From assembly GCA_902802585.1 (NCBI GenBank), contig CADCMR010000006.1, positions 11,468 through 75,467 on the forward strand: a stretch of 64,000 bases of DNA. The letters run 5' to 3'. Both the position numbers and the translations under genes were made by a program. The notes beneath the pieces were generated by a model that had not been told where the DNA came from, did no database searches, and saw only the letters and a program-made list of their open reading frames with translations. Shown here piece by piece: positions 2,561 through 59,015 of this stretch (positions are counted from its first letter, which is position 1; every line of letters begins with the position of its first letter). This DNA comes from an uncultured bacterium (GTDB lineage Bacteria > Verrucomicrobiota > Lentisphaeria > Victivallales > UBA1829).

Positions 2561-2911
2561 TCACAGAAGCGTGATTGCAATGCGTTTCCCGCAGGCGTGT
2601 GCGAAGCGTGCAATTGTGGAATAGGATACGTTCTTTCTGCCGCGCTCGATCGCCGCGATGTAGGACTGCTTCGTTCCCATGCGTTTTGCGAGTTCCTCCT
2701 GCGTAAGCCCTGCCTCTTTGCGCGCCTTGTGGAGCTCCATGACGAGCTGCATGTGGGAAAGCTGTTCGTTCACCTCGTCCTTGTTGGCGGGATCGGAGTA
2801 CCAGGCCCATCTTTCCTCGCTGTCCTTCGTGTATTTGTCCGGATGGACCTTCAGGTCGTCGAGGAATGATTCGAGCTGTTTGTCCGTCATTTCATCCGCG
2901 CGGTCTTTCAT
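2561..2911 (-). CDS. XRE-family HTH antitoxin (HigA-like)
   Basis: C-terminal HTH ARKEAGLTQEELAKRMGTKQSYIAAIERG. The ATG at 2911 overlaps the toxin stop (ATGA coupling). Confidence 0.85.
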   Translation of the reverse strand: MKDRADEMTDKQLESFLDDLKVHPDKYTKDSEERWAWYSDPANKDEVNEQLSHMQLVMELHKARKEAGLTQEELAKRMGTKQSYIAAIERGRKNVSYSTIARFAHACGKRIAITLL

Positions 2912-3258
2912 GATACAAGTCCTTTCTGGATAAGCCATTTCAACGTTTTTCGCGCGATGGCCATTTCCCGTTGGGGTATTTCCTGGGTTTTCTTGACATA
3001 TCCGTGAATGGCATAAACCCGGTTTTCGAGTCCGTAGACATAGAATATCCGGATGTTTCCTGCCTGAATGATACGGATCGCGAACAGGTCCTCTCCCTGG
3101 ATTTTTTCCGCGTAAGGGTAGGAAAGCGTCCCGTCTCTTTCAAGGAGAAAAACGATCCCGTTAAGCTCTTTCTTGACGTCTCCCGACTGTTCGCGCATGA
3201 AATCTTTCACGGAAGGAAACATGATGAACGTCTTTTTCTTTTCAGGTTGCGGATTCAT
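2908..3258 (-). CDS. Type II toxin, RelE/ParE/HigB (Gp49-like) family
   Basis: 116 aa with LFAIRI..RIFY...HGYVKKTQEIPQRE, typical of the Gp49/HigB subgroup; toxin-before-antitoxin order. Confidence 0.85.
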   Translation of the reverse strand: MNPQPEKKKTFIMFPSVKDFMREQSGDVKKELNGIVFLLERDGTLSYPYAEKIQGEDLFAIRIIQAGNIRIFYVYGLENRVYAIHGYVKKTQEIPQREMAIARKTLKWLIQKGLVS

Positions 3259-53255: not shown

Positions 53256-54122
53256 TCAGGCGAGTTCGGCGGCATCGGCTTCCGGGTCCGGTTCCACGCC
53301 CTCGCTGGCCTTGATGTACTGGCCGCAGAGGTAGCAGTTGCAGAAGAGATAGCAGAAACACAATGCGAGCAGCGAGAAGATGATGCCGACCGAGAGCAGA
53401 ATCCACGCGATGAGTGGCGGACACTGCCTGGAGATGAACGTGAAAATCGCGTTGGAACCGAAAACAAGGCAGAAAAGCCAGTACAGGATCACCAACATGC
53501 CGACGATCCCGAGCAGGAACTCCTTCCATATCTTCAGCAGGAGCAACAGCGAACGCCAAAGCATCTTAAACGGGTTGACTGTCTTGTCTCGAGTCAGCAC
53601 CGGGATCACGATGCACATGGAAGCGACCCACATGAAATTAAACGGGGTAATCAGCAGGGACCAGGTCACCAGACTCCAAAAATGGGAGGCGGCAGTGCAC
53701 CAGCCGCGTTTGAAGTCGGCTCTCTGACCATTCCACACACGGATGATCTCGCTGTCCAGCGTGAGCAGCAGGAAATTCGAAATGAACGTGCCGAAGAACT
53801 GGATGGTCAGTGCGACCGCAAGCAATATGACCTTGTGCTCCTGTTGATTGTAAAATGCATTGAATTCCTCTTGCGTGCGGCACGGCTGCCCCATCATAGC
53901 GGGGTAGAGAAAGAAGCCACCGAGGAACAGTCCGATGTAAAACACCTGAAGCATGAGGTTCACGGAGGCGAGGTTGAGCAGTACGGAGTCGCGGACGGAA
54001 ATCTGGAGCGCGTTTTTCAGCATTCTGCGGACGGAGGCAACTGTGGATTCGGATTTGACGGGCGCGGACGCGTCGGCGATCAGAGTATCGGAGGAAATCA
54101 TGGAAGAAGACCTTTCATTCAT
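53256..54122 (-). CDS. Hypothetical membrane protein co-transcribed with the GntR regulator
   Basis: 288 aa with 5-6 hydrophobic segments; overlaps the regulator stop (ATAA/ATG junction). Confidence 0.7.
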   Translation of the reverse strand: MNERSSSMISSDTLIADASAPVKSESTVASVRRMLKNALQISVRDSVLLNLASVNLMLQVFYIGLFLGGFFLYPAMMGQPCRTQEEFNAFYNQQEHKVILLAVALTIQFFGTFISNFLLLTLDSEIIRVWNGQRADFKRGWCTAASHFWSLVTWSLLITPFNFMWVASMCIVIPVLTRDKTVNPFKMLWRSLLLLLKIWKEFLLGIVGMLVILYWLFCLVFGSNAIFTFISRQCPPLIAWILLSVGIIFSLLALCFCYLFCNCYLCGQYIKASEGVEPDPEADAAELA

Positions 54123-54526
54123 TTGCTGTTTATCGTGATGACGGCGTGTTTCGCGGTCAGGTAGTCGGAAACGTCCTGCTCCGAGATGCCAAACATCCCG
54201 GCGGACGTGACCAGTGAGGCGAATAGTGTGTCCAGATGGCGCTGTTTCTCCTCATCGGTGAGCGTGTGGCGGGCGTCGGCGCGTTCGGCGACGAAACAGC
54301 CCATGCCGCGGCGGGTTTCGATCAGTCCCGCGAGTTCAAGTTCGCGGTACGCCTTCGCCACCGTGTTCGGATTCACGTTCAGCTCGGCGGTCACGTCGCG
54401 AATCGACGGGATCTTTTCGCCCGGGGAAAGCGCCCCGGAGAGGATCTTCCCGGAGAGCAGCTGGACGATCTGCCGGTAGATCGGGACCCCGGATGAGAAG
54501 TTCAAGGTCAGTTCGGAAACATTCAT
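54119..54526 (-). CDS. GntR-family transcriptional regulator, YtrA subfamily
   Basis: PIYRQI, PGEKIPSIR, VNPNTVAKAYRELE and RRGMGCFV motifs; short C-terminal domain. Confidence 0.92.
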   Translation of the reverse strand: MNVSELTLNFSSGVPIYRQIVQLLSGKILSGALSPGEKIPSIRDVTAELNVNPNTVAKAYRELELAGLIETRRGMGCFVAERADARHTLTDEEKQRHLDTLFASLVTSAGMFGISEQDVSDYLTAKHAVITINSK

Positions 54527-54571
54527 GGTTCGGAAAAATCTCCGTTGGGGTTAAAGTGTATTTGTTTCGCA

Positions 54572-54593
54572 GTGTACTATTAAAATAGCACAC
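54572..54593. promoter_or_regulatory. Palindromic operator, probable YtrA-type autoregulatory site
   Basis: GTGTACTAT-taaa-ATAGCACAC about 45 bp upstream of the regulator, overlapping a TTGACA (minus strand, 54604-54609) promoter region. Confidence 0.65.
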
Positions 54594-54656
54594 CATAACA
54601 CACTTGTCAAGCCATGTTCTGGATTTTTCTCAAAAAAAGTTGGAAACAGAACCGAC

Positions 54657-54908
54657 GGGAATGAGGCGGAACAGAAAAATGCTTTCGCGCACACACGCTA
54701 GTTTCAGTTAAAACTACCATCTTTTAACTGAAACTAGACTTGATTTTCCGGTTTTGTTCTCCAAGTTCGGATTGTTTTGCGAAAAAAACACTGGTTTCGG
54801 GACTGAGGGAATGAGGCGGAACAGAAAAATGCTTTCGCGCACAAGCGCTAGTTTCAGTTAAAACTACCAACTTTTAACTGAAACTAGACTTGATTTTCCG
54901 GTTTTGTT
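54657..54908. repeat. Two 102-bp direct repeats (54657-54758, 54807-54908), each with a perfect 16-8-16 inverted repeat
   Basis: The copies differ at 3 positions. Arms CTAGTTTCAGTTAAAA / TTTTAACTGAAACTAG with spacers CTACCATC and CTACCAAC. Confidence 0.95.
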
Positions 54909-55166
54909 TGCTGTTTTTTCCAGAGAGGATTCTGAAAGGGGGAAATGGGCGGATGGCGGAACGGAATCCTATCCAACGCCGTCCGGATACGGTTGCGCCA
55001 TTTTTCCATCGTTTTCCTCCGAAATCCGGTCTTTTTCGGGTTTCATATTTGAAAAAAACCCGTTTCGGCTGTATTATAACTTTGTACTGCTTTAGTATGG
55101 ACACGCGCGCCTTCCGCCGCGTACCACAAGGATAAACCAACGCAAAACGGTCAGGAAACGGGAATT

Positions 55167-58100
55167 ATGGCTACGGATTTCGTGCATCTGCATTTACATA
55201 CGGACTACAGCCTGCTGGACGGCGCGTGCGCCATCTCGTGGGCGAAACTGAAGAAGGAAGACGCCGTGGGCAAGGTGGACTTGGTCACGATGGCGCAGGA
55301 ATACGGCATGAAGGCCTGCGCGATCACGGACCACGGGGTCATGGGCGGATGCTACGAGTTCCACAACGCCATGAAAAAGGCGGACATCAAGCCGATCATC
55401 GGGTGCGAGACGTACATCGCGCCCGGCAGCCGCCTGGAGAAACAGCCCGGCATCCCGAACATCAAGGGATTCCACCTGATCCTGCTGGCGAAGAACAACG
55501 TCGGCTACCACAACCTGTGTAAGCTCAATTCCGAAGCGCACATGACCGGGTTCTACTACAAGCCGCGCATTGACCGCGAACTCCTCGCGAAATACCACGA
55601 GGGCATCATCGGCATGAGCGCGTGCCTGCAGGGCGAGATCGACGTGGCGATCCTGCGCGGCGGCGTGGACGCCGGCCGCAAGGTGCTGTTCGACTACCTC
55701 GACCTCTTCGGCGGGAAGGAGAACTTCTGCCTGGAGCTCATGTACCACGGGATTGAGGACCAGAAGACCGTCAACCGGGGTTTGATCCAGCTCGCCCGCG
55801 AGAACGACGTCCGGCTGGTCGCCACGAACGACGTGCATTACCTGAAGAAGGAACATGCTCGTTCCCACGAGATCATGTTGTGCATCCAGACGCGGACCAC
55901 ACTGGACGACGAACGCCGCATGAAGATGGAGTACGACGAATTCTACTTCAAATCGGGCGACGAGATGATGCAGGTCTTCGGAACCGAGGTCCCGGACGCG
56001 ATCACGAACACGCTCGCGGTCGCCGAACAGTGCGACGTCGAGATCGGCTACGAGAACCACTATCCGGAATACACGCCGCCGCAGGAGTTCGTTGACACGC
56101 TCGACCTGAGCGCCATCCGCGTCGAAGCCGAACAGGAGATCGCCGACGAGATCGTGAAGGAGCATGAGAAGGAACCCGACAAGCCGCTCCCGGACGACGC
56201 CAAGCGTGCCAACCTCATCGAACGCCGCATCGTCATGAAGAAATCCGCCGCCTACCTCCGTAAAATCTGCCTGTACGGCACGGGTCGCGCGGACAGCGTG
56301 TGCGGCTACGAGAAGAAATACGGCTACGACCCGTTCAATCCGCCGGAGGACAAGAAGGAGGAGGCGAAACGCAACCTCGAACGCATGGACTTCGAGCTGT
56401 CGGTCATCAACCGCACGAAATATCCGAGCTACTTCCTCTGCGTGTGGGACTTCATCAACTGGGCGAAGGAGCACGGCATCCCGGTCGGGCCGGGGCGCGG
56501 CTCCGGCGCTGGCTCCATCGTGGCGTACCTGAGCGGCATCACAAACATCGACCCGATGAAATACGACCTGCTGTTCGAGCGATTCCTGAACCCGGACCGC
56601 GTGTCGCCGCCGGACTTCGACACGGACTTCTGCGAACGCCACCGCCAGGAGGTCATCGACTACGTGATCCGGAAGTACGGCGAGGACAGCGTCTCGCAGA
56701 TCGGCACGTACGGTACGCTGAAGGCGAAAGCCGTCGTGAAGGACGTCGCGCGCGTTCTCGGGCGCACCCCGGCGGAGGGCAACATGATCACGAAGCTCAT
56801 CCCGGAGGACCCGAAGATGACGCTCGCGAAAGCAGTCAAGGAATCACCCGAGCTCAAGGAACTGCTCGAAAAAGAGTCCTGGGTCCGCGACATCTTCGCG
56901 TACTGCGCCCCGATCGAACAGCTCAACCGCCAGATGGGCATCCACGCGTGCGGCGTCATCATCTGCAACCAGCCGCTCGCCGACCTCGTCCCGCTCGGAC
57001 GCGGCGCGCACGAGGAAGTCATCACGCAGTACGTCGCGCCGCTCTGCGAGAACATCGGACTGCTCAAGATGGACTTTCTCGGCCTCCGCACACTGACCGT
57101 GATCCAGGACGCCGTGGACAACGTGAAGCGCACGCGCGGCATCACGCTCGACATGGACACGATCCCGCTGGATGACCAGAAGACCTACGACCTCATCAAC
57201 CGGGGCGACACCGTCTCCGTGTTCCAGCTCGAATCCGGCGGCATGCAGGACCTCTGCCGCAAGTTCGGCGTGGAGAACCTCCGGCACATCATCGCGCTCG
57301 TGGCGCTCTACCGCCCCGGTCCGATGCAGTTCCTCGACCTCTTCGTCGGGCGCAAAAAAGGCACCATCCCGCTCGAATACGACCATCCGCTCATGGAGCA
57401 GTACCTGAAGGAAACGTACGGCATCATGCTTTACCAGGAGCAGATCATGCAGTGCGTGCAGGTGCTCGCCGGGTTCTCGCTCGGCCAGGCGGACATCCTC
57501 CGCCGCGCCATCGGCAAGAAGAAGATCAAGGACATGGAGGCGCAGCACGACAAATTCATCGACGGCTGCTCAAAAACGAACCAGATCCCGACGGCGCAGG
57601 CGGAACGCATCTGGGAAAACATCAAGAAGTTCGCCGAGTACGGGTTCAACAAGTCGCACAGCGCCGCCTACGCGCTCCTCTCCTACCGCACCGCGTACCT
57701 GAAAGCGAACTACCGCCCGGAATTCATGGCCGCCGTGCTCACCAGCGAACTCTCCAACGCCAAGAAGCTCACATTCCTCATCAACGAATGCCGCACCACC
57801 GGGATCCGCATCCTGCCGCCGGACGTGAACACCAGCGACGTGAACTTCACTGTGGACGGCGATGCCATCCGCTTCGGACTCGGCGCGATCAAGGGGTTCG
57901 GACAGGGCATCTCCGCCGCCATCATTGAGGCGCGCAAGGAAGGACCGTTCACTTCGATGGCGGACCTGGCGGAACGCACCGAGGGGCTGAACGCGAAGGG
58001 GCTTGAGGCGCTCATCCGCTGCGGCGCGCTCGACTCCACCGGCCTCAAGCGCTCCCAGCTCATCGCAATGATCGACTCCGCGCTGACGGCGGCGGCCGCC

Positions 58101-59015
58101 GCACGGCGCGACCGCGAATCCGGTCAGGCAAGCCTGTTCGACATGCTGGACGACCCGAAGGACGCGGGGCTTGAGGAGCAGGCTCCGCCGGATATCCCGG
58201 AGTTCCCGGACAACGAAATGCTGGAGGACGAGAAACAGCTCCTCGGATTCTATGTTTCCGGGCATCCGCTCTCCTCCTCGAAAAAGACCATCGACACGTT
58301 CTCCACGGCAAACCTCGCGGAAATCTCCCGGATGCCGGGCGACATCGGCGTCAAGTTCGGCGGTCTCGTGACCTCGGTCGCCAAGAAATACACCAAGAGC
58401 GACAGCAAGCCGTTCGCAATCGTCCAGATCGAGGACCTCACCGACACCATCGAGTGCGTCTGCTACAACCGCCTCTACATTGAGGTCAACCAGCTGCTCG
58501 CCGAGGGCGCTAAGGTGTTTGTCCGCGCCGTCACCAAGAGGAGCGGCGAGGAGGACGCCGAAGTCTCGCTTCAGCTCGAAGACGTGATCCCGCTGGAGGA
58601 CGCGCCGTTCTACAACGCCAGGACGCTGCAGGTCAATCTTTTCGAGGACGGCATGAAGCCGGACACCTGCGAAAAACTGCGCGCCCTGCTCGCGCGCCAC
58701 GCCACGCCGCCGCCCGAGCTTTTCCCGACAGGAACCGGGCAGGACGACGCGGAGGGCGGCATGAAGCGCAAAGGCGCGAAACAGAAGCAGGGGCCGGAGC
58801 CGGTTCCCGTGCTCATCTGCGCCGCCACGGCAGACCGTCTGGCGGCATTCATCGAACTTCCGCAGTCCGTGCGCGTCTACGTGTCCAGGGGGCTCCTGGA
58901 CGACCTCGACGCGCTGCTCGGGGCGAACCACTACACAGTCAAACCAAACGACGACGTCCCGCAACCGCGCCGCCAGTGGCGCCGGGACAAGGAATCCGAA
59001 CCGGCTTCCGCCTGA
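55167..59015 (+). CDS. dnaE: DNA polymerase III alpha subunit
   Basis: PHP domain (HLHLHTDYSLLDG, TDH, TNDVHY), GPGRGSGAGS, PDFDTDF, LLKMDFLGL, YGFNKSH and OB fold. Confidence 0.97.
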   Translation: MATDFVHLHLHTDYSLLDGACAISWAKLKKEDAVGKVDLVTMAQEYGMKACAITDHGVMGGCYEFHNAMKKADIKPIIGCETYIAPGSRLEKQPGIPNIKGFHLILLAKNNVGYHNLCKLNSEAHMTGFYYKPRIDRELLAKYHEGIIGMSACLQGEIDVAILRGGVDAGRKVLFDYLDLFGGKENFCLELMYHGIEDQKTVNRGLIQLARENDVRLVATNDVHYLKKEHARSHEIMLCIQTRTTLDDERRMKMEYDEFYFKSGDEMMQVFGTEVPDAITNTLAVAEQCDVEIGYENHYPEYTPPQEFVDTLDLSAIRVEAEQEIADEIVKEHEKEPDKPLPDDAKRANLIERRIVMKKSAAYLRKICLYGTGRADSVCGYEKKYGYDPFNPPEDKKEEAKRNLERMDFELSVINRTKYPSYFLCVWDFINWAKEHGIPVGPGRGSGAGSIVAYLSGITNIDPMKYDLLFERFLNPDRVSPPDFDTDFCERHRQEVIDYVIRKYGEDSVSQIGTYGTLKAKAVVKDVARVLGRTPAEGNMITKLIPEDPKMTLAKAVKESPELKELLEKESWVRDIFAYCAPIEQLNRQMGIHACGVIICNQPLADLVPLGRGAHEEVITQYVAPLCENIGLLKMDFLGLRTLTVIQDAVDNVKRTRGITLDMDTIPLDDQKTYDLINRGDTVSVFQLESGGMQDLCRKFGVENLRHIIALVALYRPGPMQFLDLFVGRKKGTIPLEYDHPLMEQYLKETYGIMLYQEQIMQCVQVLAGFSLGQADILRRAIGKKKIKDMEAQHDKFIDGCSKTNQIPTAQAERIWENIKKFAEYGFNKSHSAAYALLSYRTAYLKANYRPEFMAAVLTSELSNAKKLTFLINECRTTGIRILPPDVNTSDVNFTVDGDAIRFGLGAIKGFGQGISAAIIEARKEGPFTSMADLAERTEGLNAKGLEALIRCGALDSTGLKRSQLIAMIDSALTAAAAARRDRESGQASLFDMLDDPKDAGLEEQAPPDIPEFPDNEMLEDEKQLLGFYVSGHPLSSSKKTIDTFSTANLAEISRMPGDIGVKFGGLVTSVAKKYTKSDSKPFAIVQIEDLTDTIECVCYNRLYIEVNQLLAEGAKVFVRAVTKRSGEEDAEVSLQLEDVIPLEDAPFYNARTLQVNLFEDGMKPDTCEKLRALLARHATPPPELFPTGTGQDDAEGGMKRKGAKQKQGPEPVPVLICAATADRLAAFIELPQSVRVYVSRGLLDDLDALLGANHYTVKPNDDVPQPRRQWRRDKESEPASA

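Follow-up and report, generated by a model that had tools for sequence, protein, structure and literature searches.

Repetitive extragenic palindromic (REP) sequences carry a GTAG head, occur in alternating or inverted clusters (REPIN doublets) and are partnered by a Y1 transposase, the REP-associated tyrosine transposase (RAYT), whose gene is flanked by the repeats. The attC sites of integron cassettes fold into an imperfect stem with extrahelical bases and have R''/R' core sites (RYYYAAC/GTTRRRY) at the stem base. Clustered regularly interspaced short palindromic repeat (CRISPR) arrays combine repeats of ~23-47 nt with unique spacers of ~21-72 nt and with cas genes or a leader. The loxP and FRT sites of Cre and Flp have a 13-8-13 geometry, and miniature inverted-repeat transposable elements (MITEs) have terminal inverted repeats, a target-site duplication and a clean empty site in relatives. 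Such systems, together with bacterial interspersed mosaic elements (BIMEs), are the background for comparison here. We compare with them a pair of perfect hairpins found between a GntR-family gene and dnaE in a 64,000-nt stretch of DNA from an uncultured bacterium of the Victivallales (assembly GCA_902802585.1, contig CADCMR010000006.1; the whole stretch is referred to as the window). The two hairpins belong to a previously undescribed repeat family of one rumen Victivallales genus; a full-text literature search found no description of such repeats in Victivallales or Lentisphaerae.

The pair lies in a 640-nt spacer between the GntR-family gene (135 aa, positions 54119-54526, minus strand) and dnaE (55167-59015, plus strand). 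A repeat search of the window returned one family (D1) of two plus-strand copies of 102 nt each, 54657-54758 and 54807-54908, which are 97% identical, differ by three mismatches and start 150 nt apart. The first, used as the reference copy, comprises one hairpin module (module 1) with 26 nt upstream and 21 nt downstream of it. Each copy contains an inverted repeat (I2, 54698-54713/54722-54737, and I3, 54848-54863/54872-54887) whose 16-nt arms are 100% complementary and enclose 8 nt. Two of the mismatches fall in the leader that precedes the hairpin (54694/54844 and 54695/54845, CACACACGC versus CACAAGCGC), the third falls in the loop (54720/54870, CTACCATC versus CTACCAAC) and the arms have none. 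The repeat search and our reading of the sequence thus confirm the unit, the period and the perfect 16-8-16 palindromes at 54698-54737 and 54848-54887 that a model had called from the letters alone (hereafter the original prediction). The palindromes are also AT-rich in a GC-rich genome, as it had stated, with 70% A+T in the hairpins against a genomic G+C content of 59.9%.

All parts of the pair read on the plus strand. The leader of module 1, TTTCGCGCACACACG (54683-54697), is GC-rich with alternating purines and pyrimidines and is a version of the family consensus TCCCGCGCATACGCG, in which conservation begins at position -15 relative to the start of the hairpin. The hairpin that follows (54698-54737, 16-8-16, loop CTACCATC) belongs to a minority "CTAG" subfamily and scores 83.6 bits on the plus strand and 38.6 bits on the minus strand with the covariance model R1 described below. 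The spacer between the modules (54738-54832) contains no match to a sigma-70-type promoter and no supported open reading frame (ORF). Module 2 consists of the leader TTTCGCGCACAAGCG (54833-54847, identified by reading the sequence) and a second perfect palindrome (54848-54887, 16-8-16, loop CTACCAAC; 80.3 bits with R1 on the plus strand). When up to three mismatches were allowed, the 40-mer hairpin pattern matched twice in the window and in none of 100 dinucleotide-preserving shuffles, and as single-stranded DNA the module 1 unit has a predicted fold of -17.3 kcal/mol (z -3.98). Of the decayed third unit that had been proposed, a partial start is visible by eye at 54948-54966 (plus strand; GGGCGGATGGCGGAACGGAA versus GGGAATGAGGCGGAACAGAA), where the sequence is similar to the opening 20 nt of the 102-nt copy, but no hairpin follows. 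Mis-assembly of the pair is unlikely, given that 13 other genome assemblies and 66 metagenome stretches show the same tandem arrangement.

The genome that holds the window (G000; 2.61 Mb in 31 contigs, 92.85% complete) has eight copies of the module at five loci. These are the window pair on contig C6 (period 150 nt), two further pairs at C1:35719/35883 (period 164 nt) and C3:146469/146615 (period 146 nt), and single units at C3:52001 and C3:179366. Six of the 14 distinct perfect hairpins in this genome (arms of at least 13 nt, loops of 3-10 nt) come from the family. The covariance model R1, built from the eight copies, found matches in 13 of the 15 other genomes of the genus and in none of 45 genomes drawn from elsewhere in the order (other genera and families). 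Matched genomes have 13-44 matches with both strands counted, corresponding to roughly 6-22 units (G000 gives 16 matches for its eight units). The two members without matches (G006 and G007) are outliers in which the DnaE N-terminus is 72-76% identical, versus 96-99% for the rest, and their dnaE and yajC loci hold no perfect hairpin with arms of at least 11 nt. A scan of 185k species genomes with the exact pattern returned 56 stretches, all from rumen metagenome-assembled genomes (MAGs) with titles naming Lentisphaeria, Lentisphaerae or Victivallales or just "uncultured bacterium", and a metagenome collection contributed the 66 further stretches mentioned above. There were no matches on viral contigs or in phage and plasmid records. 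Copies beyond the window, which the original prediction had proposed to look for, therefore exist within the genus, and the local duplication is neither unique nor without conservation.

The module is about 57 nt long and oriented. A GC-rich leader (TCCCGCGCATACGCGC) is followed by a 40-nt AT-rich hairpin with a 16-bp stem and a conserved 8-nt loop. In 105 units anchored on the hairpin, conservation spans positions -15 to +41, with no conserved position outside, and the consensus reads TCCCgCGCATACGCGC / AAGTTTCAGTTAAAA / CAAgTTCC / TTTTAACTGAAACTT / GA. The constraint thus covers leader, stem and loop together. The orientation signal is clear, with 50 matches scoring 58.7-86.8 bits on one strand versus 29.5-46 bits on the mirror strand. 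The leader alternates between purines and pyrimidines and is reiterated in some units. A possible leader mini-hairpin, CGCG-CATA-CGCG, abuts the main stem and is broken by a common G-to-A variant. In addition, an outer closing stem between the two flanks appears in 63 of 104 single-sequence folds, in an inconsistent register.

Pairing within the stem is maintained through sequence change. The 16-bp stem is perfect in 96 of 126 units. Among 150 model-aligned matches, 99.3% of cells pair and seven of the 16 pairs are changed on both sides (41 cells), values reached by none of 500 shuffles, although the stem statistics come partly from loci fetched with an exact-arm pattern and so understate arm variation. 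Arm variants include GTTTCTGTCAAAA/TTTTGACAGAAAC, GGTACAGTAAAAA/TTTTTACTGTACC and ...AAAT/ATTT..., and the base of the stem is CTAG...CTAG in the window subfamily and CAAG...CTTG in most copies. Several self-complementary arm variants coexist in one genome (three in G000, two in G004 at loci L034 and L045), and for this reason the compensating changes argue for intrastrand pairing and not for a dimer's binding site in duplex DNA. Only 3 of 2303 cells are G-U and mismatches show no wobble bias (T:G 3, A:C plus C:A 7, among 24), a pattern that lends no support to selection at the RNA level.

Across the genus the modules form short arrays. We counted 75 arrays with called genes on both sides, among which those of related genomes are not independent observations. 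Thirty consist of one unit, 30 of two, ten of three and five of four. All are direct, with no array of mixed orientation, and gaps from hairpin to hairpin range from 93 to 318 nt (median 155). The DNA between units varies, a point that the original prediction had singled out for checking: clustering by similarity splits the 73 distinct spacers into 57 groups, of which 44 have a single member. Because mostly unrelated spacers separate direct modules, the arrays have the form M(SM)n, where M is the module and S a spacer. One spacer family is common to non-orthologous loci, the array at yajC in G009 and an array at a TRL gene in G003. The homology extends over 242 nt at 83% identity, and its bounds coincide exactly with the start of one module and the end of the next. 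Array spacers and flanks often have short tandem repeats of their own, such as the ~57-nt and ~45-nt units between two modules upstream of gntR in G014 (L132, C7:26150-26430), the CCGGCATATCCGGCTT repeats at L026 and the ~23-nt repeats (CGTTTCCAACGATTTTCCC) at L028 and L029.

The arrays are dispersed through intergenic DNA next to ordinary genes, including dnaE, gyrB, lexA, feoB, yajC-secDF, proS, the uracil-DNA glycosylase gene, a GH115 gene and genes for major facilitator superfamily transporters. Where the neighbours are co-directional, 27 arrays read in the sense and 26 in the antisense direction; 16 occupy divergent spacers and six convergent ones. This mix is close to that of all G000 spacers of at least 300 nt (143 co-directional, 101 divergent, 38 convergent). 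Module orientation is unrelated to the neighbouring genes. A link to the replicated strand was considered and rejected, as orientation flips six times within 100 kb of contig C7 of G014. We also rejected a small ORF ending in the hairpin (...FPRIRASFS*), for which an in-frame ATG is present in 37 of 105 units versus 30 and 25 in control frames.

Single copies come and go between species. Only one of the 16 genus genomes has units upstream of dnaE. Two sister species, G003 and G013, share the gntR-dnaE junction with spacers of 277 and 363 nt and have no unit there, and the G000 spacer is longer by about 355 nt that show neither a clean boundary nor a duplication. The dnaE pair is a lineage-specific insertion or expansion of the genus repeat. 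Conversely, sites on contig C8 of G000 are empty where G003 has three units (L043) and G004 has two (L045), and half-module remnants persist at C8:26505 and C8:56035, places where relatives carry full arrays. One remnant keeps a leader and left arm before giving way to unrelated sequence, and of the other only a right arm is left, within the 5' region of a TRL-family gene. Alignments of filled with empty sites (L043 and L045 against G000:C8, and the G000 dnaE spacer against G003 and G013) revealed unrelated replacement sequence and no duplication.

The junction upstream of dnaE is a hot spot of rearrangement in this genus, whether or not modules are present. In each of the six further species examined (L110-L122) the gene on that side of dnaE is a different one, and never gntR. 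The idea that arrays mark rearrangement breakpoints was rejected: three of ten arrays have flanks that are not adjacent in G000, but synteny in the genus is fluid in general.

At yajC the module is more widely kept. It occurs upstream of this gene in 11 of the 14 genus genomes with some upstream DNA, in one to three copies with different spacers among species and always in the yajC orientation. Some 1.5 kb of upstream DNA in each of G002 and the outlier G007 lacks it, as do the 422 nt available for G010, and in G014 it has decayed; the yajC promoter is unchanged in G014 and G002. Across ten species the module at this locus has a mean pairwise identity of 0.83 and its 70-nt flanks of 0.50 and 0.51, compared with 0.47 for an unrelated control and 0.91 for the promoter with the 5' untranslated region. 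The module has thus been kept while the surrounding neutral DNA was randomised, yet single copies are dispensable.

The palindromes show no sign of being a recombinase site or a gene switch. The inner 34 nt do have the 13-nt inverted arms and asymmetric 8-nt spacer of loxP and FRT, in two direct copies, as the original prediction had emphasised. This geometry is, however, a subset of a longer 16-8-16 palindrome and hence weak evidence. Unlike loxP and FRT, the module includes a conserved 15-nt leader, its arms co-vary within a genome, no cognate recombinase lies nearby and there are eight copies here and 6-22 per genus genome. The proposal that the pair represents paired sites for a trans-acting tyrosine recombinase, or a minimal cassette array, therefore finds no support as it stood. 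The window itself encodes 53 called genes, which two Pfam scans (51 genes, and GntR and DnaE) identified as housekeeping genes, with no recombinase, transposase, reverse transcriptase or Cas family among them. The predicted lack of a recombinase or cas gene in the window accordingly holds for the called genes, and none of the six Phage_integrase matches of the genome is on contig C6.

Resemblance to CRISPR and to small mobile elements is likewise partial. Direct hairpin repeats with GTTTC...GAAAC ends and mostly unique spacers recall CRISPR, whereas the repeat is ~57 nt, the gaps measure 93-318 nt, one to four units occur at many loci, the window has no cas gene and a spacer is partly duplicated along with the repeat. 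Like MITEs and Correia elements (also known as Neisseria miniature insertion sequences, NEMIS), the modules are small non-coding inserts with inverted termini, near promoters and present or absent among relatives. Unlike them, they show no target-site duplication or clean empty site, and the conserved unit of ~57 nt is asymmetric and arranged in direct tandem. Overall, the module does not qualify as a loxP/FRT site, a CRISPR repeat, an attC site, a RAYT-linked REP, a MITE, a terminator or a GntR operator.

The reading that we prefer, with a probability of about one half, is that the module is a structural or selfish DNA hairpin repeat similar to REP/BIME sequences, probably recognised by a factor encoded elsewhere. 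With REPs and BIMEs it shares a short intergenic hairpin palindrome, restriction to one lineage, dispersal, small arrays with other short motifs, variable copy number and a lack of coding capacity. Its action would be that of folded DNA, a hairpin or cruciform extruded where the DNA is single-stranded or supercoiled. An unlinked factor would recognise the leader and the loop, by analogy with REP/BIME sequences, and arrays would grow, shrink and swap spacers by recombination between near-identical modules. At dnaE the module would have no dedicated regulatory role. Of the possibilities raised by the original prediction, a non-autonomous mobile hairpin element with CTAG ends comes closest. The dispersed, genus-wide hairpin repeat and its presence or absence among species agree with that suggestion, but CTAG ends are confined to a minority subfamily, and neither a target-site duplication nor a clean empty site nor a transposase was found.

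Several observations weigh against a REP-like repeat. Recognition by an unlinked factor is wholly something that we infer. Defining REP/RAYT features are missing: a GC-rich leader replaces the GTAG head, the stem is AT-rich and perfect in a GC-rich genome, and the arrays are direct where REPs alternate or invert. Copy number is low for a selfish repeat, with eight copies here and tens per genome at most in the genus, where REPs number in the hundreds. G000 (92.85% complete) has no match to the Y1 transposase family (PF01797) and thus no RAYT. Y1_Tnp matches occur in five of the 16 genus genomes, as intact genes in two and fragments in three, and no module lies within 1.5 kb of these five matches at E up to 10. 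A Y1 transposase or RAYT was therefore rejected as the driver, as it is absent from G000 and not flanked by modules elsewhere in the genus. The intact genes are of the IS200/IS605 type (L154 on G008:C99 and L155 on G015:C9). To the same side belong the exact-arm retrieval behind part of the stem statistics and the gene contexts, which derive from our own simple codon-usage gene caller trained on G000. Conservation of loop and leader at an orthologous locus would equally fit an RNA or a recombination site. Finally, there is some RNA cover of the repeat itself. We compared the region with the contigs of four rumen metatranscriptome runs at 90% likeness (the share of the target in rumen RNA sequencing runs is small, 0.04-0.13). 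The contigs cover coding parts of gntR and dnaE, and in one run (X1) only, the repeat region is covered at a depth of 11.4 over 54668-54731 and 3.2 over 54732-54795, a contig-level signal that is low and partial, with zero cover over 54604-54667 and 54796-55115.

This low-depth contig, for which DNA carry-over is also a possible source, bears on the alternative that the family is a multicopy non-coding RNA, a kind of reading that the original prediction had also raised. In that case the module, or a module-spacer-module unit, would be transcribed, and the hairpin and loop would be the functional or processing element of a small RNA, resembling tandem small RNA families or a repeat-spacer precursor. 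Strict orientation, a conserved loop and leader, a co-varying stem, exclusively direct arrays and the persistence of the yajC module amid randomised flanks would all be expected of such a family. The surrounding sequence is harder to reconcile with it. Promoters of the clade are of the sigma-70 type (TTGAAA-N17-TATTAT at dnaE, TTGTTT-N17-TATATT at yajC), and a pattern that recovers both of these, applied to 112 units, found none closer than 100 nt to the hairpin start in either direction and a single sense promoter in the 200 nt upstream. Conservation stops at -15, and in the 105 anchored units no T-run follows the stem directly, the nearest being a weak "ttt" at +45 to +47. The spacers are mostly unrelated, the rarity of G-U cells and the lack of wobble preference among mismatches point away from RNA, and Rfam has no matching family either for 53500-56000 (E up to 10) or for 16 array loci (E up to 0.01). 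We regard an RNA family as unlikely. A bolder version, in which a new class of small RNA is processed from the arrays as repeat-spacer precursors, may also be entertained; it stands close to the exchange system considered next.

Array form raises a different possibility, namely that the module is a cassette-type recombination site on which an unlinked recombinase, acting on the folded or duplex module, inserts, excises and shuffles short non-coding S+M cassettes, a modified form of the first idea in the original prediction. Such arrays would be comparable to attC sites and to clusters of attC sites lacking integron integrases (CALIN), which likewise have folded palindromes in direct orientation separating short unrelated segments, lack an adjacent integrase and differ in content among relatives. 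The M(SM)n form with modules at both ends, unrelated spacers side by side, the variable units and spacers at yajC, the shared spacer bounded exactly by modules at two non-orthologous loci, and six tyrosine recombinase genes elsewhere in G000 fit this idea. These genes are on contigs C3, C4, C15 and C22, the nearest (C3:223001) lying ~43 kb from the unit at C3:179366, and no recombinase adjoins any array examined. The known features of attC are not seen either. Module stems are perfect, with no extrahelical bases, and have CAAG/CTTG or CTAG/CTAG at the base; GTTAAAA/TTTTAAC sits at the loop end rather than the stem base and misses the core-site consensus at one position. The "cassettes" of 93-318 nt show no coding sign in the one frame tested, and many arrays of one to four units take the place of one large array with a linked IntI-type gene. 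No precise junctions or empty sites were found, the module is absent from the viral contigs and the phage and plasmid records searched, and RecA-type recombination or gene conversion between near-identical 57-nt repeats can yield all of the patterns. We therefore consider a cassette site improbable. The same low standing applies to a more far-reaching form of it, a hairpin-directed exchange system in which an unlinked enzyme would read the folded leader and loop and transfer short non-coding S+M cassettes from one intergenic locus to another, each some 150 nt upstream of a housekeeping promoter. Such a system would be a miniature, ORF-less and integrase-unlinked analogue of integron cassettes that rewires promoter-upstream DNA.

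A duplex-DNA binding array is more doubtful still. Here each palindrome would be a high-affinity dimer site for a regulator or nucleoid protein, for instance an operator or upstream activating site, acting on promoters ~150 nt away, such as those of dnaE, yajC, gyrB and others. A perfect AT-rich palindrome in a GC-rich genome would suit a site of this kind, as would neighbours that include dnaE, gyrB, lexA, yajC-secDF and proS. Among the 112 units, 22 have a sense promoter whose -10 element ends 160-260 nt downstream of the hairpin start, and in nine a divergent promoter lies 100-240 nt upstream. Compensated arm variants within one genome are nevertheless not what a dimer of fixed specificity would select for, and the asymmetric loop and one-sided leader are as conserved as the arms. 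The dnaE units are lacking in 15 of the 16 genus genomes, and the promoter is kept in the two that were aligned; the yajC promoter is the same with a decayed module in G014 and with none in G002. The suggestion of a tandem operator between gntR and dnaE has thus lost its footing, as two sister species with the same junction have no units and gntR has its own conserved operator-like repeat at 54572-54594, which is the better candidate.

That a bidirectional intrinsic terminator was duplicated locally, or that the pair arose in assembly, is barely credible: a consensus scan does flag both window hairpins as terminator-like, with a T-run a few bases downstream, but the pair sits between divergent promoters with nothing to terminate, the family has no U-tract immediately after the stem, sense and antisense arrays are balanced, 16 of the 75 arrays lie in divergent spacers, and the architecture recurs in the other assemblies and metagenome stretches.

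A parS or ParB-type site was also rejected, as G000 has no ParB_N match and its dnaA is on another contig.

The family adds a well-defined repeat to a phylum (Lentisphaerota, Victivallales) known almost solely from metagenome bins. With its presence in 13 of 15 other genus genomes and 0 of 45 outside, the module can serve as a genus marker, and it probably gives rise to contig breaks and rearrangements in these MAGs. It also offers a clean test case for the upkeep of perfect palindromes, in which pairs undergo compensating change without passing through wobble intermediates. Should a factor dedicated to binding or recombining the module exist, direct M(SM)n arrays upstream of core promoters would represent a novel means of organising or exchanging promoter-upstream DNA. 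For the gntR-dnaE spacer, the result removes a supposed regulatory or recombination feature.

Two elements of this spacer are separate from the repeat. The inverted repeat GTGTACTAT-TAAA-ATAGCACAC (54572-54594, minus strand) overlaps the -10 element of the gntR promoter, whose minus-strand hexamers are TTGACA (54605-54610) and TATTTT (54582-54587). It is nearly invariant in G000, G003, G013 and G014, two of which (G003 and G013) have no dnaE units, and it is likely the autoregulatory operator, as predicted from sequence, for the YtrA-type GntR gene together with those downstream. The dnaE promoter (TTGAAA-N17-TATTAT, 55049-55077, plus strand) starts 162 nt downstream of the second hairpin and is kept in sister species. 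A conserved GGGTTTC...AAACCCG inverted repeat (55020-55077) precedes and overlaps this promoter, and a similar motif of T-run, CGGG and A-run occurs just upstream of the yajC promoter in the clade. Elsewhere in G000, a ~100-nt direct duplication (CCGGGATATTGCTGTTTTTCTGTGGAAGAGTGATCTGCC...) lies downstream of a CYTH-domain gene at C9:81500-81700, the position where G002 and G014 carry module arrays beside gntR. Elsewhere in the window (2561-3258, minus strand), adjoining Gp49-like (DUF891) and HTH_3 genes have the arrangement of a HigB/HigA-type toxin-antitoxin pair.

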